From Eubacteriales bacterium (lineage in GTDB: Bacteria; Bacillota; Clostridia; Oscillospirales; CAG-272), in the NCBI GenBank assembly GCA_045612185.1, contig JAZKYO010000100.1, positions 13,606 through 77,605 on the forward strand: 64,000 nucleotides of DNA, written 5' to 3'. The notes under the pieces are model-generated. The model saw only the letters and a list, made by a program, of their open reading frames with translations, was not told where the DNA came from and searched no databases. Shown here piece after piece: positions 32,520 through 64,000 of the stretch; within the stretch, counting starts at the first letter, position 1, and every line of letters begins with the position of its first letter. A program made the position numbers and the translations under genes.

Positions 32520-33299
32520 ATGACAAACCCAAACGCCAAAATTCTTATCGCAGACGAAAACCCCATGCAAAGACAGTCGCTTAAGGACGGACTTAGAAAC
32601 GCGGGCTACCGCAACATTGACGATGCCGCCAATGGCGAGGACGCGCTGGTAAAAATAAACAGATATCACCCCGACATCGTCTTAATAGACCTTTGCCTCT
32701 CAAAGCTTGACGGTATAGGAGTTCTCAGAAACAGCAAGCAGATAAATTTCGGCAACGACGCCGCCCCTGCTTTTATCATTTTCTCGGTATTCGCCAACTC
32801 CAACACCTTTCTTGAGGCGGCAAACGCGGGTGCGGAGCTTTGCCTTATGAAGCCATACAATATCGGAAGTCTGTGCGAACACATAGAAGCTATTCTTCGC
32901 AACAGAGAAAAAGGCATTACCGCAAGCACCGCCGAAAATCAAGCGCCCGATATTGAAACCCAGGTAACAAAAATCATTCATCAAATCGGTGTACCCGCGC
33001 ACATAAAGGGCTATCAGTACCTCCGAAGTGCGATTATGATGACCATAAAGGACTCGGACATCATAAATTCCGTGACCAAGGTTCTCTACCCCACCGTGGC
33101 AAAGCAGTATCAGACCACCACAAGCCGCGTGGAGCGCGCCATTCGCCACGCCATTGAGGTTGCGTGGGACAGAGGCGACGTTGATACCCTCAACTCCTAT
33201 TTCGGCTACACTATACAGAACAACCGCGGAAAGCCCACAAATTCGGAATTTATCGCCATGATTGCCGATAACCTGAGACTTAAATACAAAATCAAATAA
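32520..33299 (+). CDS. spo0A: Sporulation master regulator Spo0A
   Basis: Receiver domain plus [41 protein letters not shown]. Confidence 0.98.
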
Positions 33300-50876: not shown

Positions 50877-53800
50877 TTATTCGGATTTTCCGTAAAGCGC
50901 GGGGTTGTAGTCAAGGAAATAAGAGTTACTTATGTTCCAAATCTCACCCATAGGAACGGTAGTTCCGTTGTACGTATCAAAAGATGCGTACCACTTATTG
51001 TCACCCTCTTTAAGTCTTACGTCAAGTCTTGTACTGTCAACCTTAACGCTTCCGTCGTCAATAACGAAGCCTACAAGACCGTAAAGCCCCTCGTAAGAGC
51101 CCCCGGGATTACCAAGATACTCAATGTATCTGTTTTCCGTGGATTTACCCACTTTAACGTTTGTGGTATTTGCAAGATCACGGTCATAATTATACTCATC
51201 AGCGGTAAGGTCCGCCTCAACCCTTACAGTTCCGTTAGCGTCAAGCAGATTTGCGTATGCGCCAACCATATTGGAGTCGATATTAAGCTCATCATCTGTC
51301 GCGCCCGCACTTCTCAACGCCCAGTTGACACGGTACACAGTTGCCATCTGCAAGAAAGTTTGATCCACTTTCGGACCGTAGTCACCAACAAGGAATTCAA
51401 CCTGCTGCTCAAGCTTAATACCATTGGTGTTGACAAGGTACTTCTGGTTGTGATTCATTACGTCGGTCTCCTCGGTATCGCATCTGTTGATAACCGTTGA
51501 CTGAACCATCTCAAAATTGGTTCCGTTGTTATAAACACCGGGCTTTGAGGAGTCAATTCTTGCTCCGTCCAGGTAGAAATCAACACAAATAAGGTTTTCA
51601 TCACCGTGGAATCCACCCACAAAGTCTTTTGCGTCTACACCGTTCCATCTTTCACTCATAGCAAGCGAAATTTCTCCCGTATTAAGCACGTTAAAGACAA
51701 GAGAATAATAATTTTCGCTTTCTCGCTTTACAAGCTCCGCCCCCTTGATTCGGTAAAGGCTCTTGTTATCCGGTGTATTGGCTTTTCCATTGGTATAATC
51801 GTAAGAGTTGATATTGTTTCTCTCGTAGTCAAAATTATACCTGATATAATAGTCTCCGCTTGCCTCGCTGGTCTGAACAAAGACGTCAATATCACCAAGC
51901 TCCTGTATACCCGACGCATTGTGTACGATAACGTTTACCGCCCCCTCTTTAACAAGTGTGGGAGGCGCAGAAATCACACCGCAAAGGCTCATATAATTGA
52001 TTCTTACGAAATCGCCGCCCGTGCGCTTAACTATCTTAAAGGTATGAGTTCCATTTTCGATATTTTCTGCAAGCACGAGAGTGTGGTGACCAAACGCCAA
52101 CTCAACGCCCTCTCTTACAAGTATGCCGTCAACGTAAATATCAAACTTGCTGCTCTCAGCTACCTCTCCGTAAGCGTTTGTAAGATTTACGCTTACCTCA
52201 CCCTCGCAGTCTGCCGCAAAAGCAAACGCAGCGTTAAGTCCGTTAAGCTCAAGCGCGCCGTCGTTAGTATAAGCAACGTACTCGGTAGTTTTGAAGTTAG
52301 CGTTTATGTTGTCGCCCGCAGGCTTAATCTGCTTAAATTCGGTATCACATACCCATTCCGTCACCACTTCCTCAACGAAATCAAGATCTATGGTAGCCGA
52401 AGCGGCATAAAACTTTTTGTCGTTAACGGTTGTAAAGGGAGTAACCACAAGCTTAACAGCTTCTTCAGAGGTAATTCCCGTTATGTTTGCCGTAGCAAAG
52501 TATCTGTAACCGTAGTCGGCGGGATAAATCGTTTTTGCGTTTCCGCCTATCCACTCGTCGATAGAAGAATATACGATATTCGTTTCGTAGGTGGTTTGAC
52601 CGTTAGAGATAACCGCGCCGTTTGAGTCGTACGCCTTAACCTCAAAGCCTACACTACCGTAGTAGAGCATATCAAGTCCCGCTACAAGACGGATATCACG
52701 ATCGCTTGTAGACTTTTGAACGCCCACAAACTCAACGTTTGCGCTTGCGTCAAGCTGATAAATATCAATAGACTTCAAGTCAAGCGTTCCAAGAGAACCG
52801 GTATTGAAGCTTGCCGTTCTCACCCTCGTTTCAAGAGAATTTCTTCTATACCCTCTTACGTCCTTAAGTTGAATTTTGTCGGCAAGCAAAACGCTGTCTC
52901 CGCTCTTATAATAGGGAATCTGTCCTCCTATTCTGTAGCTTGCCAAGCCTGCGTCGGCGTCATAAATAACCACCAACTTTTGCCACTTGTCGGACGAAAC
53001 CTTTATCTCATCTCCGTTTTCATCAACAAGAAGTCCAAACGGAGTAGAAATATAGCCGAGAGCGGTTATATTGAGCATAGAGTCAAAAATGCCCGTTCCG
53101 CTTGTGTCGGTCCTTCTTATAGAAGACAGCTCGAATAGCGCCTTATTCTCTGCTGTTGCCGTAGCTGCAGGAGTAAATCTTACGTCGTACTCAAACACGG
53201 TAGCGTGATCCTCAAGATAATCGGTAAGATATATGTCGGAGAAGATATGATCTGTACGTGCCGTATCAAAGCTCCATCTGTAATAGCCTTCACCGTCCTC
53301 GTCCACAAGCATATTAGAAATAGAGGCGTGCTTGGAAAGAGTGTTCATATTGATAATTCCATTAGTTACGTATCTGCTAGAATCAGCCGCCGCAAGAATA
53401 TCGGGGTCAAGTTTCAAAATCTGACCTCTTCGCTCCGAAAGCTCACGCTTAAGATCTGCGTGAATATAAAGCTCAGTAAGCTCGGTATTTGATGCAATAC
53501 GGAACGCCACGTGATGTGTGTCTTTCACCTCATTGACCGCAGATGAAGCAACACCAACCAAAGCGCCATCAACAAACACGCTTGCGGTTTCGTCCTTTGT
53601 CCACATCGTTACCGAGATATCATTGTACTCATCCGAATCAAGCCCGTTAAGATGAACGTTACTTACAAGCTGACCGCCAACAAGTATATTTTGGGTGGAC
53701 TTGTCAATATAACCCATGCTGGCTTTCTTGGTATTGTAAAGAAGAGAAGCCACGTATCCGTCGGTTGTTTCGGTTTTAGCTCTCATCTCAACGTTAAATC

Positions 53801-56800
53801 CGTCGGTAGTGGTGTTATTATTCTGAAGGAATTTGTAGAAAACGTTATTATAGTCAATCCAAGCAAAAACCTCGCCATTGGGGATAGAAAGCACGCCGTT
53901 CTCAAGGGTAACGCCTGCGCTTCTGTAGAACTGGGGGCTAAGGTCGTCTATACTCTCATAATCCGAAAAATCCACCATTGCAGAATCCGCCCACAGTGGG
54001 AAAGGATTATTTTCAAGCAACTCACACTTAAAGGACTTCAAATCAACCGAGAAATTTGAGCTTTGGAAAACTCTTACTCTTTGGTCAATAGCGCCTATAC
54101 GCTGAGTTTGATCGTCACTAACAACACCTTCAATATTTACCGCCATAATGGGATAAGGGAATTTAGAGGTTTTGCAATAAGCCGCCTCGCCGTTTATCAT
54201 ATACGAAACGAGAGGAGTATCGGTGCTTTCATCCACAATCACCTTAATGGTAAGCCACTCGTTTGTATTAGCTTTATATTCCATTCCACTTGCGTCACAG
54301 AGATAATAGGTTTCGGAATTCCCGGTGAAGTACAGTTTTCCGGAGGAGTTCACTCGCATATAAGCAAGTGCATGTTGTGCTTGACCAGCGTGCTGACGTC
54401 TTACATTGAAAATAGGAACAGAGGAACCAGACGGAATTACAACGTTTCTCAAAACAGTTTCCATGGCAAAAATCTTACCCGCAACGTTTGGTGTAAATAC
54501 GTCGTAATAGCAGTCTTTGTCGCTTCCCGACAGCATAACGTAATCAATATTATTAGTAGTGTCCTTTTTATTGGTAGCGAAACTGTTGGACCAAGCTGTA
54601 AATCCTACAACACCTACGTCACCACCATCTTGGTTTTGAAGCGTCACTGCGGAATTACTTGTGGAAATGTTAACAGTCGAAAAATCAACGTAGTTTACCA
54701 ATCCCGACTTGTCATTTTCACCGGTTGCGTACTCATAAGGCAAAACGCCCTCGTATATTTTAATGTTATCAATTGCGCCGCTTACCGCATCTGTGGTGTT
54801 GTTGTGAAAAAATCCCCAAAGATCTTGATGCGAAACAGAGCCTGCTTTAAGCATTACGCTTCCTTTTACCGATCTCTGCGCATCGAACCACGAACAAGAA
54901 GAAACAGCTCCCTCTCCGTCGTATTTAACAACAAAATAGTCTCCGATAACATAGTCGCCGGTTGCCTTTATAACCTCATATACCTTTTCACTTTCGGTAT
55001 CCTTGGTGTTCTTGAAATTGTCGGTCTTTGAAAAATCGGGAAGCTTATCTAACGCCACACTTTTTTCGGTATACTTCAAGCTTCCGGGCACAAAGTTTCC
55101 GTTGGCATCATAGACAAGCTGATACATGTCGCCCGTAGCCTCGTCTATATACTGCTTTAAGGTTGCGGTATTGGTAACTTGTCTAAAGCCACTAACGTCT
55201 ACCGAATCTTCAGATGCGAGAAGGCTGCGCTTATAGCTTCTGTCGTTTATAAAGCGTCCGTCGTACCAGGTTTTTTCAAACAACATCTCGTGTCTGCTTA
55301 CTTGATTATGAGCTCCCACAAAAACGTCGTCTACCCACAATGCTACACTGTAATTCAAAGACTTGCTGCCCTGATAACCCGTCCAATCATCAAACAATCC
55401 CTTATTATCTGCACCAACGTCAACAGTTACAGAAAGAACGATGTGCGTCCACTCATTGGAGCTTGCGGATTTCATTTTTATATTTGGAACAGTTCTTGCG
55501 CCGCTACCAAATATAATAGTCCCGTCTTTATTCAGTGTCAAAAACTGAGGAGTGTTGGTATTATCATAAATTCTGAAGAACGGAAGATTATCCTTTGCGG
55601 AGGTAGCTCTTATGTCAAACTCAACAGTCCAGTTACCGTTTTGGATTATCTGATACTTATCGTTGATATTAAGACGGCTTCCTGCCGCAAAGGTAAGGAA
55701 CTTGTTAGTCTTACCGTTCACGGTTTCACTGCCTACCTTTATACCGCTTGTTTCTGCGTATCTGTACGCGGTAGAGCCGCCTAATTTACCGTCAACAAGA
55801 TTACCGATAGTCCCCTCAAAGCTATTCTCGTAGTATGCCGTTCTTCCGTCAGCAAGCTCTACCTCTCTTATGTACAGGTTGTCAACGTCTATAATGCACG
55901 GAGTCTGACTTGAAGAACTGTAATCCATGCGCGCAAAGGTAAAGGAAAGATTATCGCCCGCCTTTTCTTCACGGCTTGTTATCATACCGTCATCATCGTA
56001 TGTATAATTTATAAAGGTCTCGGAGCTAAGCCATGAGTCCTCACTTTTCAAATTCTTTGCCGCCTGCGACTCTACCACAAGAACGTTGTCTATATATATG
56101 CTGAATGTCTGGGTAGCATCGTAATATATTACCTTAAAAGACACGAAATCCGAAGCGGATTTATCAAGAGTGATAACGTCCTTTTCGATAAGAGTGGTCT
56201 GTTTGTTCGAGTTGGTATTTCCGTCGGGAACGTATATTCTGAGATACTTATCGGGAACGGTAACCTCTTTTCCGTCAACCATCTCTTTTCCCGCTACAAC
56301 CTTTGCGTCCAAGAATTTGATAGGCGCGTTGGACGAACGTCTGAAACGCAAAAGCGCCATTGTTTGAGAGTAATTTATTTTACTTGTATCCTTAACTCCA
56401 TGCCAACGCAAATCAAACTCAAAGGAAAGAGTGTTTCCTATGGTATAGGACTTACCGTTCTTGCTCATTACAAAGCGAGTACCGTGCCAGCCACCGGTCT
56501 TTCCGTAAGTAGCGCGTACAAAGTTACCCATATAGTTTCCATTCTCGTCGTAACGAGCCATAGAAACACCGGATATACCTCCGTTTGAGTCATATCCAAA
56601 TCCATATGGGTTGGAATCTGCACCTGCTTTGCTATACCATTGGTTAAGTGCCGTTCCTTCCGATATTTCATCAAACACATACTTGTAGAAGTAGTCGTAA
56701 TCAGCTTCTTCCACCAATGTGTCTTGTGTATGTACGGGGAATGAAAAAGCTCCCACCGGCAATGCTGACAAAAGCATTACAGCGCACAAAACAAAAGACA

Positions 56801-56822
56801 AGCTTACTTTCAAGAATTTCAT
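50877..56822 (-). CDS. Very large secreted beta-rich multidomain protein (1981 aa)
   Basis: Sec signal peptide, repeated LamG/ConA-like segments, a CE2-N-like segment; promoter TTGACT-17-TAGAAT at 56864-56892. Confidence 0.75.
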   Translation of the reverse strand: MKFLKVSLSFVLCAVMLLSALPVGAFSFPVHTQDTLVEEADYDYFYKYVFDEISEGTALNQWYSKAGADSNPYGFGYDSNGGISGVSMARYDENGNYMGNFVRATYGKTGGWHGTRFVMSKNGKSYTIGNTLSFEFDLRWHGVKDTSKINYSQTMALLRFRRSSNAPIKFLDAKVVAGKEMVDGKEVTVPDKYLRIYVPDGNTNSNKQTTLIEKDVITLDKSASDFVSFKVIYYDATQTFSIYIDNVLVVESQAAKNLKSEDSWLSSETFINYTYDDDGMITSREEKAGDNLSFTFARMDYSSSSQTPCIIDVDNLYIREVELADGRTAYYENSFEGTIGNLVDGKLGGSTAYRYAETSGIKVGSETVNGKTNKFLTFAAGSRLNINDKYQIIQNGNWTVEFDIRATSAKDNLPFFRIYDNTNTPQFLTLNKDGTIIFGSGARTVPNIKMKSASSNEWTHIVLSVTVDVGADNKGLFDDWTGYQGSKSLNYSVALWVDDVFVGAHNQVSRHEMLFEKTWYDGRFINDRSYKRSLLASEDSVDVSGFRQVTNTATLKQYIDEATGDMYQLVYDANGNFVPGSLKYTEKSVALDKLPDFSKTDNFKNTKDTESEKVYEVIKATGDYVIGDYFVVKYDGEGAVSSCSWFDAQRSVKGSVMLKAGSVSHQDLWGFFHNNTTDAVSGAIDNIKIYEGVLPYEYATGENDKSGLVNYVDFSTVNISTSNSAVTLQNQDGGDVGVVGFTAWSNSFATNKKDTTNNIDYVMLSGSDKDCYYDVFTPNVAGKIFAMETVLRNVVIPSGSSVPIFNVRRQHAGQAQHALAYMRVNSSGKLYFTGNSETYYLCDASGMEYKANTNEWLTIKVIVDESTDTPLVSYMINGEAAYCKTSKFPYPIMAVNIEGVVSDDQTQRIGAIDQRVRVFQSSNFSVDLKSFKCELLENNPFPLWADSAMVDFSDYESIDDLSPQFYRSAGVTLENGVLSIPNGEVFAWIDYNNVFYKFLQNNNTTTDGFNVEMRAKTETTDGYVASLLYNTKKASMGYIDKSTQNILVGGQLVSNVHLNGLDSDEYNDISVTMWTKDETASVFVDGALVGVASSAVNEVKDTHHVAFRIASNTELTELYIHADLKRELSERRGQILKLDPDILAAADSSRYVTNGIINMNTLSKHASISNMLVDEDGEGYYRWSFDTARTDHIFSDIYLTDYLEDHATVFEYDVRFTPAATATAENKALFELSSIRRTDTSGTGIFDSMLNITALGYISTPFGLLVDENGDEIKVSSDKWQKLVVIYDADAGLASYRIGGQIPYYKSGDSVLLADKIQLKDVRGYRRNSLETRVRTASFNTGSLGTLDLKSIDIYQLDASANVEFVGVQKSTSDRDIRLVAGLDMLYYGSVGFEVKAYDSNGAVISNGQTTYETNIVYSSIDEWIGGNAKTIYPADYGYRYFATANITGITSEEAVKLVVTPFTTVNDKKFYAASATIDLDFVEEVVTEWVCDTEFKQIKPAGDNINANFKTTEYVAYTNDGALELNGLNAAFAFAADCEGEVSVNLTNAYGEVAESSKFDIYVDGILVREGVELAFGHHTLVLAENIENGTHTFKIVKRTGGDFVRINYMSLCGVISAPPTLVKEGAVNVIVHNASGIQELGDIDVFVQTSEASGDYYIRYNFDYERNNINSYDYTNGKANTPDNKSLYRIKGAELVKRESENYYSLVFNVLNTGEISLAMSERWNGVDAKDFVGGFHGDENLICVDFYLDGARIDSSKPGVYNNGTNFEMVQSTVINRCDTEETDVMNHNQKYLVNTNGIKLEQQVEFLVGDYGPKVDQTFLQMATVYRVNWALRSAGATDDELNIDSNMVGAYANLLDANGTVRVEADLTADEYNYDRDLANTTNVKVGKSTENRYIEYLGNPGGSYEGLYGLVGFVIDDGSVKVDSTRLDVRLKEGDNKWYASFDTYNGTTVPMGEIWNISNSYFLDYNPALYGKSE

Positions 56823-56969
56823 AATCGCTCTCCTTTTAAATCACAAAATAAAAATACATTCTAATTCTACCATATTAAATTGAAAAAGTCAACATAACAA
56901 GAAGAAAAGTTCACGCTTTTTTGAAATTTCAAATAAAAAAGCCGAGCAGATCTCGGCATTTTGTATTTT

Positions 56970-58943
56970 TTAATTTTTAGGAACGATAACCATATCGTCT
57001 ACAAAGACGTAGCTAAGTCTGTTTTCCCCTCTGGTAAAGGAAAACTCGGCTTTTTCTATCGCACCTTCGGGGATACATGAAAGATCCACGCTATGCTCAT
57101 ACCAGCCATTTTTGCCGTTTTCGGCGGCGGTTGCCTTCACTTTATGAACAAGGCTAGTGCCATCTTTTTCTTTGTAGTAAAGCACAAGCTCCACGGTAAG
57201 ATTGCAATGGTGATAAAGCGAGAATTTCAGCTCTTTGTAATTTTCAAAATCAAGCGTATCGTATTGACTTGCTAGGATATAAGCGCCAAATTTCTTATCG
57301 CTGTGATCAAGCGCGTACACACGAAGTGAACGGCTTGTCAGGGCGAAATCGCTATCATAGCACAATCCCGAGCCGACGTTGGGAGTAAATATAGCACGGT
57401 TGAAGAAATCGAAGTAGGTATTGTGAACACTTCCCACAAACTCGGCGTCGTTTTCGTTATTAAGCCAAGGCTTTTTGGAAATTCTGACTACGTTATCAAC
57501 ATCGTCAACAAACTCGGTGCAGAAAGGTGTTACGGGAAATTCGCCCGCAAAAATATTAGTCTTTGGCTCAAGCGAGGAAACCGCGTAGGCTACGTGGCAA
57601 GGTTTATCTATATATGGGTGGTACACGTTCATCACGTTTTTGGAAACAATTTCAAAATATGCGGGAGTATAGACTCCGTCCTTGGAGCGAATATAAAGTC
57701 CTCTCGCCTTTTGCCCCTTAACGTAAAGTCCGTCTCCTACGTTTTCAAAAGTAAGGCGAAGCTTATTTCCGTGTCTCACGCATGACTTGAGCATGGGTGG
57801 CAGAGTTTGAATGTTTTTCACCTTTCTGCCGTAATACTTATTTTCGACAAGAATAGCAATTCTGTCCCCAATTTTATACTTATGTATTGGGTGTATAGGA
57901 TGATTTCCGCCCCATTTACACCATATCAAAGGCAAGTCGCAAATAGGAACAAATGGATATTCGTCGGGGGATTTTTTTGCCATATCCGAAAATGCTTTGT
58001 TGATGTATCCCATTCTTGTGTCGTTGTAGTCGGAGTATTTCCACGCAAAAAGCTGAACCGAAAGCATCGGGAACACCTCGTCCGCAGAAGACGCAAACTT
58101 TGCTTTGTAGCTTTCTCTGAGGGCAATCATATAGTCCTTGTAGGTATGTTTGGTGTTTTCCATAGCTACGTTGCTTTCACCTTGATACCAAAGCATTCCG
58201 CGAGCCTTAACGCCAAGCACAGCCCCCATATGGCGGTTGTAATGAGCGGCAGGCTGTTGATAATTGCTTTCGCCCTTGGTATTCCACTCTTCAAGCTTTG
58301 GAGTCCTTGCGGCAATTCTTTCATTTTTCCCGAATTCCTCGGCAGGAACCCAAGTTTCTATGCAACTGCCGCCGCGGTTGGTATTAAGAAATCCTACCGG
58401 GCATTGTTCGCCTTTCGCGGCAAGAAACTCGTAAAGGTTATTGGAGAACTTTGTGGCAATAGCAGAAACGCCTATAAAGTTGTCATCAGAGGATTTTCTC
58501 CATTCTCCCTCCGTCTCACACGAGGGTTCAAAAGGATAATCGTCGGAATGAGCCAAGCGAGGTTGATAAAAAGCACGAATGTGCTTATCCTTTATCATTT
58601 CGCGCACCTCGTTCCACTCAGGCTGTTGCGTATTGCTCATTTCCATATTAGACTGACCGCAGGCAAGCCACAGCTCACCGAAAAGCAGATTGCGAATTAC
58701 TTTTTTATCGGTATCGGAGGATACCGATATTTCATATTCATCATATGATGCGACGGGAGTTTCAATAGTAACGCAAAACGCGCCGTTGTCATCTGAAAAT
58801 CCGTTCCATTCACCAACAGTTTCACCGTTTTTTTGAAGCGTAAGGGTGATTTTTTGGTTTTTCTCAGCTTTTCCGCTTATATCAAGATGAGACGAGTGAA
58901 GAAACAAAGCACCGTCTCCGAAAACACAAGGTAAAAACAACAT
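56970..58943 (-). CDS. Sialate O-acetylesterase-like SGNH hydrolase
   Basis: GELWLACGQSNM, GGSCIETW, LWYQGESN, IHP..K..IGDR. Confidence 0.85.
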   Translation of the reverse strand: MLFLPCVFGDGALFLHSSHLDISGKAEKNQKITLTLQKNGETVGEWNGFSDDNGAFCVTIETPVASYDEYEISVSSDTDKKVIRNLLFGELWLACGQSNMEMSNTQQPEWNEVREMIKDKHIRAFYQPRLAHSDDYPFEPSCETEGEWRKSSDDNFIGVSAIATKFSNNLYEFLAAKGEQCPVGFLNTNRGGSCIETWVPAEEFGKNERIAARTPKLEEWNTKGESNYQQPAAHYNRHMGAVLGVKARGMLWYQGESNVAMENTKHTYKDYMIALRESYKAKFASSADEVFPMLSVQLFAWKYSDYNDTRMGYINKAFSDMAKKSPDEYPFVPICDLPLIWCKWGGNHPIHPIHKYKIGDRIAILVENKYYGRKVKNIQTLPPMLKSCVRHGNKLRLTFENVGDGLYVKGQKARGLYIRSKDGVYTPAYFEIVSKNVMNVYHPYIDKPCHVAYAVSSLEPKTNIFAGEFPVTPFCTEFVDDVDNVVRISKKPWLNNENDAEFVGSVHNTYFDFFNRAIFTPNVGSGLCYDSDFALTSRSLRVYALDHSDKKFGAYILASQYDTLDFENYKELKFSLYHHCNLTVELVLYYKEKDGTSLVHKVKATAAENGKNGWYEHSVDLSCIPEGAIEKAEFSFTRGENRLSYVFVDDMVIVPKN

Positions 58944-59012: not shown

Positions 59013-59043
59013 TTGCATTTTATATATGCTCAACTCATATATT
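59013..59043 (+). promoter_or_regulatory. Sigma-E-like promoter upstream of the P-type ATPase
   Basis: TTGCATT-N16-CATATATT resembles the mother-cell sigma-E consensus. Confidence 0.45.
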
Positions 59044-59072
59044 TTTTACAGTACGAATAAAGGAGAAACGCA

Positions 59073-59987
59073 ATGATAACGAGATTCAAAACGCAGGAAA
59101 AACAGCGTGGTTTAACCGATGATGAAGTAATCGCCTCGAGACGTGAGCACGGAAGCAACACTATGTCCAAAGTTAAAAGAAAAAGCTTTTGGGCGCATTT
59201 TGCTTCCAATATGAACGACCCAATTATCAAGATTCTAATAGCAGCACTTATTATCAATATAATCTTTGTATTCAGAACCTCAGATTGGGTAGAGACAGCA
59301 GGAATAGCCATATCAGTCTTTCTCGCCACATTCATTTCCACACTCTCGGAATACGGTAGTGAGAACGCATTTGACAGACTTAACGAGGAAAACGAAAATT
59401 ATCTTTGCAAAGCAAGACGTAACGGAAAAATTTGCGAAATCAGAGTCTCGGAAGTAGTGTGTGGAGACATTATACTGCTTTCATCGGGTGACAAAATACC
59501 AGCCGATGGTTTTTTAATAAGCGGAAATTTGGTGGTTGACCAAAGCTCGATGACGGGAGAAAGTGCCGAGGTTCAAAAATCCCCCAAAAAAGGCGAACAG
59601 CTTTCTCCAAAATCAAAATCAGCCTTGCTACGTGGGTGCGCAGTAATATCGGGCGAGGGTGAATTTGAGGTTTCTGTGGTAGGAGACAAAACTTTCATTG
59701 GCGAAATATCACGCGAAATCCAGCTTGACACACGCGAAAGTCCACTAAAGCTTAGACTGTCAAAATTAGCTAAACAAATCAGCCGCCTCGGTTATGCGGC
59801 AGCTTTTCTTGTAGGTGCGGTATATGTTTTTAACGCATTAGTGTTTGACAGTGGCATGAATGCGTCGGTTATATGGATGAAATTGCGGGATTTGCGTTTT
59901 GTGTTTGAAACGTTATTAAACGCATTCACCCTAGGTCTTACCGTAGTCGTCCTTGCTGTTCCTGAAGGATTACTCCTTTTTAACTGA
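59073..59987 (+). pseudogene. 5' half of a Ca2+-type P-type ATPase, interrupted immediately after VPEGL
   Basis: GDKIPADG, DQSSMTGES and TM4 VPEGL are intact, then LLFN-stop; no DKTGT phosphorylation domain follows. Confidence 0.88.
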
Positions 59988-60257
59988 TAACTCCTAACCG
60001 CGCAAGCGGTATTAAAAATTGTCGACTGTGCGAAAAATGTCGAAGCGAGGGACTCGACATTGTGCGCCGCTATGAGCGGCAAATGTAAAATCGGATTACA
60101 TTACGAACATAACGCTCGCACCTTTTCGCCGTCAATCGACAAAATCACTATAATTTTCTTGACAAAACGAAGGAGATATCTACTATGCCGGACCACAAGA
60201 AACTTACGCAAATATTAAAAACAATTCGTAAAAGTTCAAGTAAAGGAGGAAGCAACC

Positions 60258-60515
60258 ATGCCAGAAAGAGAAAAAGTAGCGGACAGGCTCCGAAAAATCC
60301 GCCGAAAGCTTAAAGAGAACCAAGCCGATTTCGCAGCGAACTGCGATATATCAACCGATACACTCAGCCTCATAGAGCGAGAGCAAACCGACATCAAGCT
60401 TTCAACCCTGCAAAAAATTGCGGCTTACACAGGTCTCACGGTTTCCGAACTTCTCGATACAACCACCCCGGATCTGCCGCCAAAGTTCCGTACATTCAAC
60501 ACTAAATTCAAATAA
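60258..60515 (+). CDS. XRE-family HTH regulator
   Basis: LRKIRR...NQADFA..CDIS...LSLIER...TLQKIA; AAAGGAGG RBS; terminator at 60519-60552. Confidence 0.88.
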   Translation: MPEREKVADRLRKIRRKLKENQADFAANCDISTDTLSLIEREQTDIKLSTLQKIAAYTGLTVSELLDTTTPDLPPKFRTFNTKFK

Positions 60516-60730
60516 ACGAAAAGCGGAAAGCCTTCGGGCTTTCCGCCTTTTTCATGACAATAACTTATGCAAACGAAAAATACGGAATATAATCGGTTTT
60601 CATTTTCTAAGTCGGGCGTTATAATTCCACCGTCAATAATCACAAATAAACCAACACACTTCTGATTTTGACAAGAAATAAAAAAGAAAGGAGCGAGAAA
60701 GCCCCAAAGCGTGTTGAGAAAGGAAAGACA

Positions 60731-60940
60731 GTGGAAAAGTACATACTACGGTCAAGCGAAGTCGTAGATGAAGAAGAACACACCCATACCGTGTACGGAA
60801 TAGACGTTCCAACGGAACATATATCTATCCCCGACATATTCACCGACCGCGCCACAGCCGTAAAGTTTGTAAACACCTGCAACGAATTGGAATTATCAAC
60901 GATACACATCTATGACGTTATCGAAGATGTGCTCGCGTAA
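60731..60940 (+). CDS. DUF6514-like small protein
   Basis: YGI...IPDIFTD...FV..CNELELSTIHIYDVIED; terminator at 60942-60971. Confidence 0.7.
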   Translation: MEKYILRSSEVVDEEEHTHTVYGIDVPTEHISIPDIFTDRATAVKFVNTCNELELSTIHIYDVIEDVLA

Positions 60941-61204
60941 GAATCCCCGCCCTCACGGGCGGGGATTTTTTCATTTAACCTTGTACCCGCTGTACTCCAA
61001 GAGTGCCTGCTTTTCAGCCTTTGACAGAGACAAACCGTTAATATAAGTTTTAACCAAAGCCTCGCCGTTCTTGTTTGTATAGCCGAGATAGCCGAGTAAA
61101 AAAACAATTTAGGGCAATTTAAAACAATCGTATCATATTATTATTGACTTTATATTTCTTCCAAAAGCACCAAAACTACTCAAAAACAATCTAAATAAAT
61201 CGTG

Positions 61205-61228
61205 TAATGGGTAAAATAATGGGTAAAA
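61205..61228 (+). repeat. Tandem 12-bp repeat resembling integrase arm-type sites
   Basis: TAATGGGTAAAA x2. Confidence 0.6.
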
Positions 61229-61635
61229 CTTCCGCCCACGTGGACAAGCTGACAGCTCCCCTCTCTGAGGTGGTGAAAAATCGCACTTTGGTCGCCCATC
61301 AGAACCGACGTTCTCCGCGTGCCCTCTCCCCCTCTCGGAGAGCCAAAGCGGCAAAGGTCAGCAAAACGCATTAGATTGTTTTAGATTGTCTATCGCATTT
61401 TTCCCTCTCGTTTTTGCACGTCGAAAAGATAACCGATTAAAATTTAAACGCTCCTCTCGCACGCGAGAACACCCCTACAATGCGATTTCTTGAAGGGGGT
61501 GGACTGCTACACCTATCGCGTGCGCACGAGTAGGGCGTTTTAGGGGCATTGTGAGCGATTTCGAAAAATCCAACAGAAAAGACGGAGACCTCTCGCGGTT
61601 CTCCGTCTGCTTTTTTCGATTTTCTTCTGCTGCTC

Positions 61636-61664
61636 TTGACAAGCTCCCCACGTTGTGATATACT
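61636..61664 (+). promoter_or_regulatory. Sigma-A promoter of the type I toxin mRNA
   Basis: TTGACA-17-TATACT with TG extension. Confidence 0.8.
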
Positions 61665-61803
61665 AACCTCGGCAGTAATGCCCGGGGGACACCAAAACGG
61701 TGGCGGTACGCTCCTTTCATTCCGGAAGGGGTTCTTGCTCCTTCCGAGTTTATCCAGGAAGGAGTGGTGCCTATGACCTATCATTCGCACCTTGTTTTAA
61801 GTC

Positions 61804-61881
61804 GTGGTTACTTACGAAACGCTTTTCGCGTTCGCTATGGTACTTATCGCGCTTGCGGCTCTCTTTATGAATCGCAAGTAA
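61804..61881 (+). CDS. Putative type I (holin-like) toxin peptide, 25 aa
   Basis: (M)VTYETLFAFAMVLIALAALFMNRK: single TM helix plus basic tail; absent from the ORF track. Confidence 0.65.
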   Translation: MVTYETLFAFAMVLIALAALFMNRK

Positions 61882-61882
61882 A

Positions 61883-61967
61883 ACAAAAAGAAAACCGCCT
61901 GACTCTCACATAAGGCGGTTTTCTTAATCGCAATTTTGGGAGCGCACCGTCATCGGTGTCCCTCGTC
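61883..61967 (-). ncRNA. Putative antisense antitoxin RNA (~80 nt)
   Basis: Perfect minus-strand TTGACA-17-TATAAT (61974-62002) and a terminator hairpin at 61888-61925. Confidence 0.7.
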
Positions 61968-62112
61968 ACTGTCATTATACACCACCTGCGCCGAAATGTC
62001 AATAGGTTTGAGCAAACTTTTCGCACAGTTTATAACCGCGCGCCCACGTTCGCCCACTTGGGCCCACACACACGGTGCGCACACATGCACAAAATAAAGA
62101 ATCGGAGAGCCG

Positions 62113-62331
62113 TCACAGCTCCCCGTTTTCTTTTTTCTCGTTGTCGCGCGCGATAGCTTCATCTATCGCACGGTTAATAAACGCGTTTGTGCTTTCGCCT
62201 TGCGTTTCCGCGTGGCTTTTTATTATTTCCTTTTTACCCTTGGGGACTGTCAAATTCACACGGTCGTACTTTTCGGCTATAAAAGCGTTATTGTACTCGA
62301 TTTTATTGAACTTCTTTTTTTCGTCTGGCAT
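62113..62331 (-). CDS. Ribbon-helix-helix (Arc-like) DNA-binding protein
   Basis: YDRVNLTVPKGKKEIIK.HA...GESTNAFINRAIDE; AAGGAG RBS. Confidence 0.82.
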   Translation of the reverse strand: MPDEKKKFNKIEYNNAFIAEKYDRVNLTVPKGKKEIIKSHAETQGESTNAFINRAIDEAIARDNEKKENGEL

Positions 62332-62352
62332 AGTAAAAACCTCCTTGCATAC

Positions 62353-62458
62353 ATTATATCACAAGTTGGAGCTTTGCGCAATGTGCAAAATGTACAAAAT
62401 CATTGCGCAAAGTTTGTGCATTTTACCACTTGACGCATTGCGCAATGTGTGATATAAT
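62353..62458. promoter_or_regulatory. Divergent promoter pair with three TTGCGCAA operators
   Basis: Minus TTGCGC-17-TATAAT (62353-62381); plus TTGACG-17-TATAAT (62430-62458); palindromes at 62374, 62403 and 62438. Confidence 0.75.
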
Positions 62459-62527
62459 GGAGCCACGATAGACAAACGAGCAAAATCGAGTGTCATCGAA
62501 TCCAATCCGATGAAAGGTGGTGCAAAT

Positions 62528-62680
62528 ATGGCGGACTGCTTCACACCCAATACGCAGAGAGAGGATGATGTCGAGATGATGAGCGACAAGACACTCAAAC
62601 GTCTGATAGAGTATCTTAAATCTGTCGGCTGGTCTGACAGTCAGATAGTCGCACTTCTTGACTACATAGCCAAGAAGTAA
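62528..62680 (+). CDS. Small hypothetical protein (50 aa; absent from the ORF track)
   Basis: AAAGGTGG RBS; MADCFTPNTQREDDVEMMSDKTLKRLIEYLKSVGWSDSQIVALLDYIAKK. Confidence 0.6.
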   Translation: MADCFTPNTQREDDVEMMSDKTLKRLIEYLKSVGWSDSQIVALLDYIAKK

Positions 62681-62832
62681 AAAAGAAAGCCGTTCGGACA
62701 CCTACCACAGAACCCGAACGACTAAAGATGTGAGCTTGGGGGGAGCTTCCGCCGCCCCTCTCGCTTCTTCAGTTTAACACACACGGCGGAAAAAGTCAAT
62801 AGAAATTTTTAAAAAACTTGGAGGAATTTAAA

Positions 62833-63108
62833 ATGAGCACAAACGAAATGACAAGCAAAGTAAGAGAGTACAAGGAACTCAAAGCCCTTATGGAGCAGAT
62901 TCAGGGCGAGCTTACCGCCCTCGAGGACGAAATCAAGGCAGAAATGACCGCAAGAGACACCGAGGTCATGGACGTCGACGTCTACAAAATCAGATGGACT
63001 ACCGTCAACAGCAGCCGCCTTGACACCACCGCCCTTAAGAAGGCGCTCCCCGAGATAGCCGAGCAGTACACCAAGACCACCACCTGCCGCCGCTTCAGCA
63101 TAGCTTAA
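62833..63108 (+). CDS. Phage-type coiled-coil protein (resembles the C-terminal part of YqaJ-family proteins)
   Basis: GGAGG RBS; SSRLDTTALKKALPE...YTK.T..RRF. Confidence 0.65.
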   Translation: MSTNEMTSKVREYKELKALMEQIQGELTALEDEIKAEMTARDTEVMDVDVYKIRWTTVNSSRLDTTALKKALPEIAEQYTKTTTCRRFSIA

Positions 63109-63120
63109 GGGGGTGCAGAT

Positions 63121-63435
63121 ATGAAAATGACAGCAACACGTGAGGAGGTCCGCCAGGCGTTCCTGGTGGACGACCTCCACGAACATACACAGCGCGTCTT
63201 CAAAGACCTCTACAAAGAGACAGACAATGACCGCATGATAGAGATAACCGAAAAGGTCATAGACCTTGCAAACGAGCTTCCCGAGGAAGAACGCAACAGC
63301 GAACTGAAGCGCACCACATTCCTTTCCAAAGGCGCGTACATACTCGGCTACCTTGAGGCAGATTTGCACCGCAATATAGCAGCGCGCGAAGCCTTCAACG
63401 AGCTTTTCGGGGTTAAGGAAAGGGGGGAAGTGTGA
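63121..63435 (+). CDS. Hypothetical element protein
   Basis: ORF with RBS in a tightly packed operon. Confidence 0.7.
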   Translation: MKMTATREEVRQAFLVDDLHEHTQRVFKDLYKETDNDRMIEITEKVIDLANELPEEERNSELKRTTFLSKGAYILGYLEADLHRNIAAREAFNELFGVKERGEV

Positions 63436-63695
63436 TGTCTATATTAAACTCAAAAGACGAAGACGAAAGACTCACCGCCATACTGTTTTGCGACAGATTT
63501 GAAAAGCTCCTTGATAGAATCGGCAAAACCAAAAAAGGCGAGCAAGACCTAAATGATTTAAAAGAACTTGCCGCAGAACGGTATGGCATCCCCAAAAAAG
63601 CATTTCTTGCCGCAATGTTTGCTTTTTTCGCCTTCGGGGTTTACGATGGCATAGAAGTATCACGCAAACTTTTTAACGAACACACGGAGGAATAA
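63432..63695 (+). CDS. Hypothetical element protein
   Basis: Start overlaps the upstream stop codon. Confidence 0.7.
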   Translation: MMSILNSKDEDERLTAILFCDRFEKLLDRIGKTKKGEQDLNDLKELAAERYGIPKKAFLAAMFAFFAFGVYDGIEVSRKLFNEHTEE

Positions 63696-63698
63696 ACT

Positions 63699-63911
63699 AT
63701 GTCAATGACAACACTCGTAAATAAAGAAAAACTCGTTCTTAACGTCCAAGAACTCGCCGACGTTCTCGGCATATCCAAGCCCAACGCCTACGAGCTAACC
63801 CGCAAGAACGGCTTCCCCGCTATCCGCGTTTCCGAACGCCGCATCATTATCCCGGTCGACGGTCTTTGCCGTTGGCTTGAAGCGGAGGCACTGAACGGTA
63901 CACGTATATGA
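63699..63911 (+). CDS. Excisionase/AlpA-like HTH protein
   Basis: LNVQELADVLGISKPNAYEL....GFPAIRV..RRIII. Confidence 0.85.
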   Translation: MSMTTLVNKEKLVLNVQELADVLGISKPNAYELTRKNGFPAIRVSERRIIIPVDGLCRWLEAEALNGTRI

Positions 63912-64000
63912 GCAAGAACGCCAAGGGCTTTTGTATGTTCTTTGATTGGGTCGAGGATTTAGACCAGCTCGGCGACAGTGACGGAGCTTGGCAAATCGTC
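63908..64000 (+). CDS. 5' end of a phage-type replication protein (DUF6291-like N-terminus), truncated by window
   Basis: MSKNAKGFCMFFDWVEDLDQL...; follows the excisionase gene with overlapping stop/start. Confidence 0.55.
   Translation, partial: MSKNAKGFCMFFDWVEDLDQLGDSDGAWQIV

Follow-up and report, generated by a model that had tools for sequence, protein, structure and literature searches.

Organization of the split gene

A calcium-pump gene is interrupted near the end of the DNA analysed here, a 64-kb stretch of the source genome G000 (G000:C100:13606-77605) that is referred to as the window. In window coordinates, the features of the interrupted region are as follows.

59015..59043, + strand: sigma-E-like promoter motif of the ATPase gene (-35 CATTTT, 14-nt spacer, -10 CATATATT), matrix rank 1
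59073..59968, + strand: 5' half of the PMCA-type Ca2+ P-type ATPase gene, covering the protein from its N-terminus up to PEG in TM4 (motif and model scores, in-silico rejoining)
59960..59968, + strand: attL core, common to attR (G000:C101:35101-35109, minus strand), from junction comparison
59966..59990, + strand: attL phage arm, an inverted repeat of the attR phage arm at 18 of 24 positions
59969..64000, no strand: left end of a 45,935-bp prophage, which runs on to the end of contig C100 and then through contig C101 to attR
60258..60515, + strand: HTH (XRE-type) gene at this end of the prophage; a terminator-like hairpin comes next, at 60523-60546
60668..60940, + strand: DUF6514 gene (Pfam PF20124; probable start about 60728), candidate recombination directionality factor
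60966..61093, no strand: 128-bp direct repeat that corresponds to the giant gene's 3' end, the left of two copies bounding a satellite; the right one is at window-equivalent 65937-66064
61094..64000, no strand: nested 4.97-kb satellite (RHH, small ORFs, excisionase-like HTH_17)

The open reading frame at 59073-59987 encodes a 304-residue N-terminal portion of a P-type ATPase, with ...VPEGLLLFN* at its end. A preliminary description of this DNA had claimed a break in the ATPase at about 59973, after VPEGL; the PEGL region proved right, and the exact position did not. Comparison of the two junctions places the crossover dinucleotide earlier, at 59964-59965, which is the GA of the Glu codon. Past 59968 the reading frame consists of element DNA, which supplies the Leu codon after PEG and a stop at 59987. 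The PEG motif in TM4 of P-type ATPases is an ion-binding motif, and a break there cuts TM4.

The 3' half of the gene was predicted to lie at the far end of the element with its DKTGT motif, a recombinase and a short core shared with 59960-59975, and this was what we found. A six-frame motif search located the 3' half on contig C101 (G000:C101:35109->33354, minus strand), where it opens with PEGLPLM and runs in frame for 583 codons, DKTGT among them, up to a stop beside rplQ. The convergent rplQ gene is the same neighbour that follows the intact gene in the congeners G012, G005 and G003. The core consists of 9 bp that encode P-E-G and is present at both junctions. In-silico removal of the element, with the cut placed at the Glu-codon GA, yielded an 880-residue pump, which showed a sequence identity of 77.5% and no gaps in comparison with the intact 882-residue orthologue of G012.

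Both halves scored highest on the PMCA-type model TIGR01517, for which the intact orthologue reached 586 bits against a cut-off of 507, and the TGES, PEGL, DKTGT and GDGxND motifs are present. By these scores and motifs, the split gene is classified as a PMCA-type (P2B) Ca2+ P-type ATPase. The second Ca-ATPase gene of G000 is intact and scored best as a PMR1/SERCA-type pump. Upstream of the split gene and divergent from it, the window at 50877-58943 contains a gene for a 1981-residue secreted-looking protein with no Pfam match and a gene of the sialate O-acetylesterase family.

Recombinase and attachment sites

The recombinase at the far end is a large serine recombinase (LSR) of 462 residues, which is encoded at C101:35414-36802 directly upstream of the ATPase 3' half. 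Its gene is unbroken, and the protein contains Resolvase, Recombinase and Zn ribbon domains. In the attP site predicted to form after excision, the two arms agree at 18 of 24 positions, and the attL-type arm motif recurs in most of the related elements. A tyrosine integrase encoded just past the window end was also considered as the enzyme that split the ATPase gene, and it was rejected because a 128-bp repeat of its own encloses it within the prophage.

Four TGTCGA-type boxes lie between attL and the HTH gene of G000 (59969-60257) and are absent from the other seven elements checked. These boxes downstream of attL resemble Spo0A sites; at least four of them occurred in 1 of 20,000 random windows, and the pattern was chosen post hoc, so that it serves as a lead only.

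The prophage and its nested satellite

The end of C100 overlaps the end of C101 by 81 bp, and the same bases also match contigs C16 and C91. The C100-C101 join was chosen because it gives a single continuous phage open reading frame of 2427 residues (the giant gene) and because C16 and C91 carry host genes. The alternative joins, C100-C91 and C16-C101, were rejected, since they lead into host genes with just a short copy of the giant gene. This copy, about 500 bp of chromosomal sequence with 99% identity to the giant gene, lies among host genes at the C16 end and the C91 start, and it accounts for the assembly break in G000. The ends of dozens of G000 contigs (e.g. C101:1-126) also carry a palindromic repeat, which is about 115 bp long.

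The prophage carries genes for two CI-like repressors, replication proteins, a ParB-like protein, terminase, portal, major head and virion proteins; no lysin was recognised among its genes. From this gene content, the G000 insert looks like a complete prophage. The preliminary description had called it a skin-like element. A defective, fixed element of the skin type is not what was found, as terminase, portal and capsid genes are retained, the species is polymorphic for the insert and the ATPase gene is unbroken in 13 of 13 congeners. A full prophage that some strains carry and others lack is SPbeta-like rather than skin-like.

The expectation that element sequence follows the break held up to about 60966; beyond this point a nested element with a tyrosine integrase takes over. 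The replication protein and tyrosine integrase of this satellite are encoded just outside the window. A similar satellite was observed in G435 (loci L233 and L037), where it lies between attL and the 3' end of the LSR gene, and these 5-kb tyrosine-integrase satellites of G000 and G435 form a satellite family that targets the ATPase-splitting phage.

Distribution of the split allele

The ATPase gene was unbroken in all 13 genomes of the same genus and in 18 other relatives. Interruption of the gene is rare in the family: among the matches listed, a short ATPase frame occurred in 2 of 150 family hits (G000 and G362), and a search of 401 family genomes gave one with the LSR clade. Even so, the site is a dedicated one, as eight of the nine closest LSRs found in GTDB genomes (57-66% identity) adjoin an ATPase half at PEG. 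In another genus, represented by 72 genomes, the ATPase was present in 67, the LSR clade in 11 and the split allele in nine, all of which retain an unbroken LSR gene. Altogether, the split was present in 14 genomes (G000, G431-G434, G436-G439, G464, G466, G493, G504 and G362), and neither half contained a stop in any of them, with two halves ending at contig ends; the catalytic motifs are retained. Short-frame hits in G471, G476, G486 and G495 were left out of this count, the frames of G476 and G495 stopping at contig ends. Both halves lie on one contig in eight genomes (G433, G434, G437, G438, G439, G464, G493 and G362), and the element was found in both integration orientations.

Excised-type junctions were present in two relatives. 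The bin of the ninth genome with a closely related LSR, G435, combines the intact junction with one of attL type, a coexistence that could also reflect a strain mixture. In G472, the LSR gene, attP and the DUF6514 gene lie together amid phage genes, which corresponds to an excised or free form. The G362 insertion (G362:C3:8311-46128; L159, L192) is a prophage of about 38 kb with an LSR of 32% identity and different att arms, and it occupies the same PEG codons; no DUF6514 gene was seen at its ends, and a viral scan contained no relatives of its LSR. The viral scan revealed one extra host with an LSR-attL arrangement (L078-L080) together with copies like that of G434, and a metagenome scan added no att-linked loci.

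Sequencing runs revealed that the G000 species is polymorphic, with both the empty and the occupied allele in existence. A contig of run X4 departs from the window at 59968 and proceeds into the 3' half, which is the empty allele, and a piece from run X3 ends at 59968. The occupied allele is represented by a contig of run X2 that crosses attL with seven differences in 399 bases, and LSR pieces of about 96.5% identity were present in runs X1, X2 and X6. On the attR side, runs X1, X2, X5 and X6 revealed no attB or attP joint, but their contigs had a depth of 3-5 and none bridged attR, so that this result is uninformative. The public runs apparently exclude the source sample, the best share being 0.37.

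In sister pairs, the dS of the LSR gene was 0.18 and 0.32, far below that of the ATPase gene (1.0-1.1 and 1.8-3.1), which indicates that insertions are repeated and recent and that the phage moves between hosts. As a result, the lack of decay in the halves says little about selection after the insertion, since they may just be of recent date. The comparison of dN and dS in the two halves, proposed earlier as a check, gave low ratios between split alleles, yet these are uninformative, as the insertions are younger than the divergence of the hosts. Among the strain variants listed, 10 of 12 were synonymous in the 3' half, 18 of 24 in the LSR gene and 6 of 8 in the 5' half.

Sporulation genes and promoters

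Genes for Spo0A and SpoIVA scored above the cut-off in G000, and sigK-like, sigE-like, dpaA and spoVB-like genes are also present; by gene content the host is an endospore former, in the sense of genomic potential only. The C-terminal domain of Spo0A is encoded inside the window, at about 32964-33275. The ATPase gene was found in 229 of 357 spoIVA-positive and 13 of 44 spoIVA-negative family genomes, in a hand count of kin that are not independent. That it was not found in the other 128 spoIVA-positive genomes, together with the intact second Ca-ATPase gene in G000, suggests that the pump gene may be dispensable.

The sigma-E-like promoter noted ahead of the ATPase gene was corroborated. In 13 of 13 congeners the motif, CATTTT-N14-CATA(T/A)A, recurs with the same spacing at 30-48 bases ahead of the gene start, whereas spacer and flanks differ. 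A matrix trained on the 13 congeners, with G000 excluded, ranked the G000 ATPase site first among 2123 gene upstream regions. Ranks 3, 4, 5 and 8 were dpaA, an M50 peptidase gene, a YabP-family gene and an M14 peptidase gene; the other 14 of the 18 unselected annotated top hits were not recognisably sporulation genes, a proportion that stands without a matched random control. The hand-picked ranks 25 and 41 were a spoVB-like gene and spoIVA. Promoters recognised by sigma-E in B. subtilis have a 14-nt spacing. In C. difficile, the sigma-E consensus has ATA at -35, and its -10 element is shared with sigma-K, according to the accessible text of the report (PMC3789822). Taken as promoter evidence, these results suggest that the split ATPase gene is likely a mother-cell gene controlled by sigma-E.

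No conserved sigma-E-like motif was found upstream of the LSR gene, as only 1 of 15 regions scored high (G433). In that genome, a strong sigma-E-like motif with a score of 16.4 lies directly before the LSR gene and overlaps the end of the previous open reading frame. None of the DUF6514 upstream regions scored like the ATPase promoter on the matrix, which represents one promoter type only; the upstream regions of the LSR and DUF6514 genes in G000 ranked 1582 and 289, respectively. Sigma-70-type promoter matches precede the HTH and DUF6514 genes of G000, with a terminator between them and attL, and such a promoter also lies upstream of the DUF6514 gene in G493. Read-through from the ATPase promoter into the element is possible in one orientation only. 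The CI/LexA-like or ImmR/ImmA regulators of the phages point to stress induction.

DUF6514 as a candidate directionality factor

A DUF6514 gene occupies the att end distal to the LSR gene in 11 genomes (G000, G431, G433, G434, G436, G437, G439, G464, G466, G493 and G504). In the 3.96-kb element of G438, the linked DUF6514 gene is truncated, and another copy is present elsewhere in the genome. Within the 72-genome genus, DUF6514 was found in 11 of 11 LSR-bearing genomes versus 19 of 61 others. Many copies in the genomes that lack the LSR lie beside ImmR/ImmA pairs, with no LSR within the 3-kb locus. Judging from its position and retention, DUF6514 is a candidate recombination directionality factor.

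The predicted DUF6514 structure (pLDDT 84) consists of three strands and two helices. Its sole structural match was an uncharacterised phage protein, and the Atlas search gave only DUF6514 clusters; comparison with solved structures in the PDB, by sequence and with Foldseek, gave no match, and our literature search found no paper that mentions DUF6514. Six islets (L271, L275, L276, L282, L285 and L286) were observed in which genes for an ImmA-like peptidase and an HTH repressor are accompanied by a divergent DUF6514 gene with no recombinase in 3 kb. On contig C55 of G454 (L281 / L299), a DUF6514 gene lies directly behind a sigK-like gene at the contig end, and the genome contains three similar copies.

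Reduced and inverted forms of the element

The elements range from full prophages of 34-46 kb to those of G433 (18.3 kb), G439 (8.5 kb), G438 (3.96 kb) and G493 (3.3 kb), so that one codon displays a path from an active prophage down to a minimal module. In the 18.3-kb element (L187 / L039; G433:C100:12900-31229), no head genes were recognisable by eye. The 3.3-kb element contains the LSR gene and genes for an ImmA-like peptidase, an HTH repressor and DUF6514, and three elements (G493, G437 and G464) are reduced to this one gene set of LSR, ImmR/ImmA and DUF6514. The LSR of G493 departs from conserved columns at 12.7% versus 1-10% for mobile LSRs.

Two of the reduced forms are inverted, each layout being taken from a single assembled contig. 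In G437, the 5' half, attL and the DUF6514 gene lie on the strand opposite to the repressor, peptidase and LSR genes, attR and the 3' half, at a distance of 4 kb. In G464, one contig carries attL (with the LSR, peptidase and repressor genes) and attR (with the DUF6514 gene) in inverted orientation at a distance of 109 kb. The sections of this interval that were read, which cover part of the 109 kb, contain host genes, and the LSR gene, the DUF6514 gene and both ATPase halves are unbroken. A serine recombinase that acts on inverted attL and attR sites inverts the intervening DNA. Thus, only inversion would rebuild the pump gene in G437 and G464. A flipped-on form of either was not found among the 72 genomes of the genus, and the origin of the inversions was not reconstructable from the neighbour genes.

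Comparison with known systems

The closest parallel is SPbeta in spsM of B. subtilis, for which SprA is the integrase and SprB the directionality factor (PMC4191935, PMC6957869). According to the accessible parts of these accounts, the two systems share a full prophage in a mother-cell gene (likely here), an LSR gene at one end and a small gene next to the opposite att site, restoration of the frame by precise excision (predicted here), and the existence of intact and reduced forms; the position of sprB corresponds to that of DUF6514 (PMC6957869). The target gene, host class and phage type are different, and the present elements show both integration orientations and inverted att pairs. Additionally, the sporulation-timed excision of SPbeta is proven, whereas that of the present element is inferred.

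The skin elements in sigK, with the recombination proteins SpoIVCA/Skr in B. subtilis and CD1231/CD1234 in C. difficile (PMC5025042, as far as its accessible text goes), are similar in that an LSR-bearing element splits a sporulation gene, which is probable here. The 3.3-kb, 3.96-kb and 8.5-kb forms of G493, G438 and G439 resemble defective skins. In contrast, the G000 element is neither defective nor fixed, and the sigK-like gene of G000 is unbroken. CD1234 is described as having a sigma-E promoter, whereas none is conserved before the candidate directionality factor of the present elements. The gin element in gerE, vfbin in spoVFB, vrin in spoVR and yin in yabG (PMC5595907, PMC4191935, PMC10747680) likewise interrupt genes of spore formers and have serine recombinases and a short common core; in the accessible descriptions all are excisions, unlike the inverted att pairs found here.

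The pump itself has likely functional analogues. YloB of B. subtilis and Solibacillus is mother-cell-expressed, needed for heat-resistant spores and discussed as a P2A pump in the available text of PMC12999246, and the C. difficile Ca-ATPase CD2833 is listed as sigma-E-dependent (PMC3789822, accessible part); like the split pump, which is likely expressed in the mother cell, they are Ca2+ P-type ATPases. Compared by subtype class rather than by sequence, the split gene scores best as PMCA-type on TIGR01517, its paralogue as PMR1/SERCA-type and YloB belongs to P2A, which makes orthology with YloB doubtful. The split gene is therefore probably not a YloB orthologue, and the link is one of analogy.

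In the gene-intervening-element papers searched by term, the accessible text made no mention of an ATPase, yloB or calcium target. The literature search found no paper that combines a calcium-transporting ATPase, attB, a prophage and an integrase. A Ca-ATPase term was absent from eight text supplementary files of PMC10083194, whose larger tables may differ. In the literature searched, subscription papers excepted, we found no precedent for the Ca2+-pump target, the candidate directionality factor or the inversion-type remnants, nor for developmental gene reconstitution by inversion. These elements add a Ca2+ pump gene, itself a probable sporulation gene, to those known to serve as integration sites, and they do so in uncultured Clostridia that are abundant in the gut.

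Interpretation and alternative explanations

We propose that a temperate phage with an LSR has integrated into the Glu codon within PEG of a pump gene that is likely controlled by sigma-E. Excision would likely be triggered in the sporulating mother cell through DUF6514, the predicted directionality factor. Precise excision would rebuild the 880-residue pump in the mother cell while the spore retains the prophage, and the rebuilt pump may load Ca2+ into the spore. In G493, G437 and G464, the phage body is gone, leaving the LSR, ImmR/ImmA and DUF6514, and in G437 and G464 the gene would be rebuilt by inversion. The anatomy of the sporulation rearrangements is present at this locus, and sporulation-timed excision is likely, with a probability of about 0.55 for the whole reading.

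The strongest competitor, which we rate clearly lower although still as a serious contender, is an ordinary temperate phage at a very conserved codon that excises under stress only, leaving a lysogen with no pump for which the second Ca-ATPase compensates; the small elements would then be decaying remnants whose ends have survived by chance. The recent horizontal insertions, the polymorphism within the species, the complete phage gene set with its stress-type repressors and the lack of a conserved sporulation promoter at the LSR or DUF6514 gene are all in keeping with such a phage. Internal deletions naturally spare end genes, the linked DUF6514 gene of G438 is broken and the LSR of G493 departs from conserved columns more than the mobile LSRs do. 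It is harder to reconcile with the lack of dead split alleles in the 14 genomes and with G464, where the element is immobile, with 109 kb of host DNA between the inverted att sites, yet the LSR, DUF6514 and both halves are unbroken. Moreover, where elements in mother-cell genes have been tested, their excision takes place in sporulation (PMC6957869, PMC5595907).

A bolder extension of the sporulation reading regards DUF6514 as a new family of directionality factors and the phage recombination unit as repeatedly domesticated, with G437 (4 kb) and G464 (109 kb) carrying a mother-cell inversion switch that assembles the spore calcium pump. We consider this extension tentative and rather doubtful as a whole. 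If the inverted forms flip in sporulation, they would represent gene reconstitution by inversion, including a predicted 109-kb programmed inversion. The elements also give DUF6514 a testable function and provide a new set of LSR, att sites and candidate directionality factor.

Phase variation, in which the gene is rebuilt off the sporulation clock, appears improbable. Low-level or reversible recombination would give an intact pump in a subpopulation, and the inverted forms would be two-state switches. This would fit the attB and attL junctions in the single bin of G435, which may come from a strain mixture, as well as the sigma-70-type promoters before DUF6514 in G000 and G493. Inverted att sites also lose no DNA, and their products, attB and attP, would permit flipping back, but no flipped-on G437 or G464 form was present among the 72 genomes. 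The pump promoter looks sporulation-specific, so that vegetative switching would be without effect until sporulation.

We regard it as very unlikely that a working pump forms from two separately expressed halves with no recombination, or that the split is an assembly artefact. A sigma-70-like promoter does read across attR toward the 3' half, where an ATG follows PEGLPL, but the break cuts TM4 within the ion-binding motif. As for an artefact, the two halves of G000 lie on two contigs; against this, the independent run X2 spans attL, and the eight genomes named above carry both halves on single contigs.
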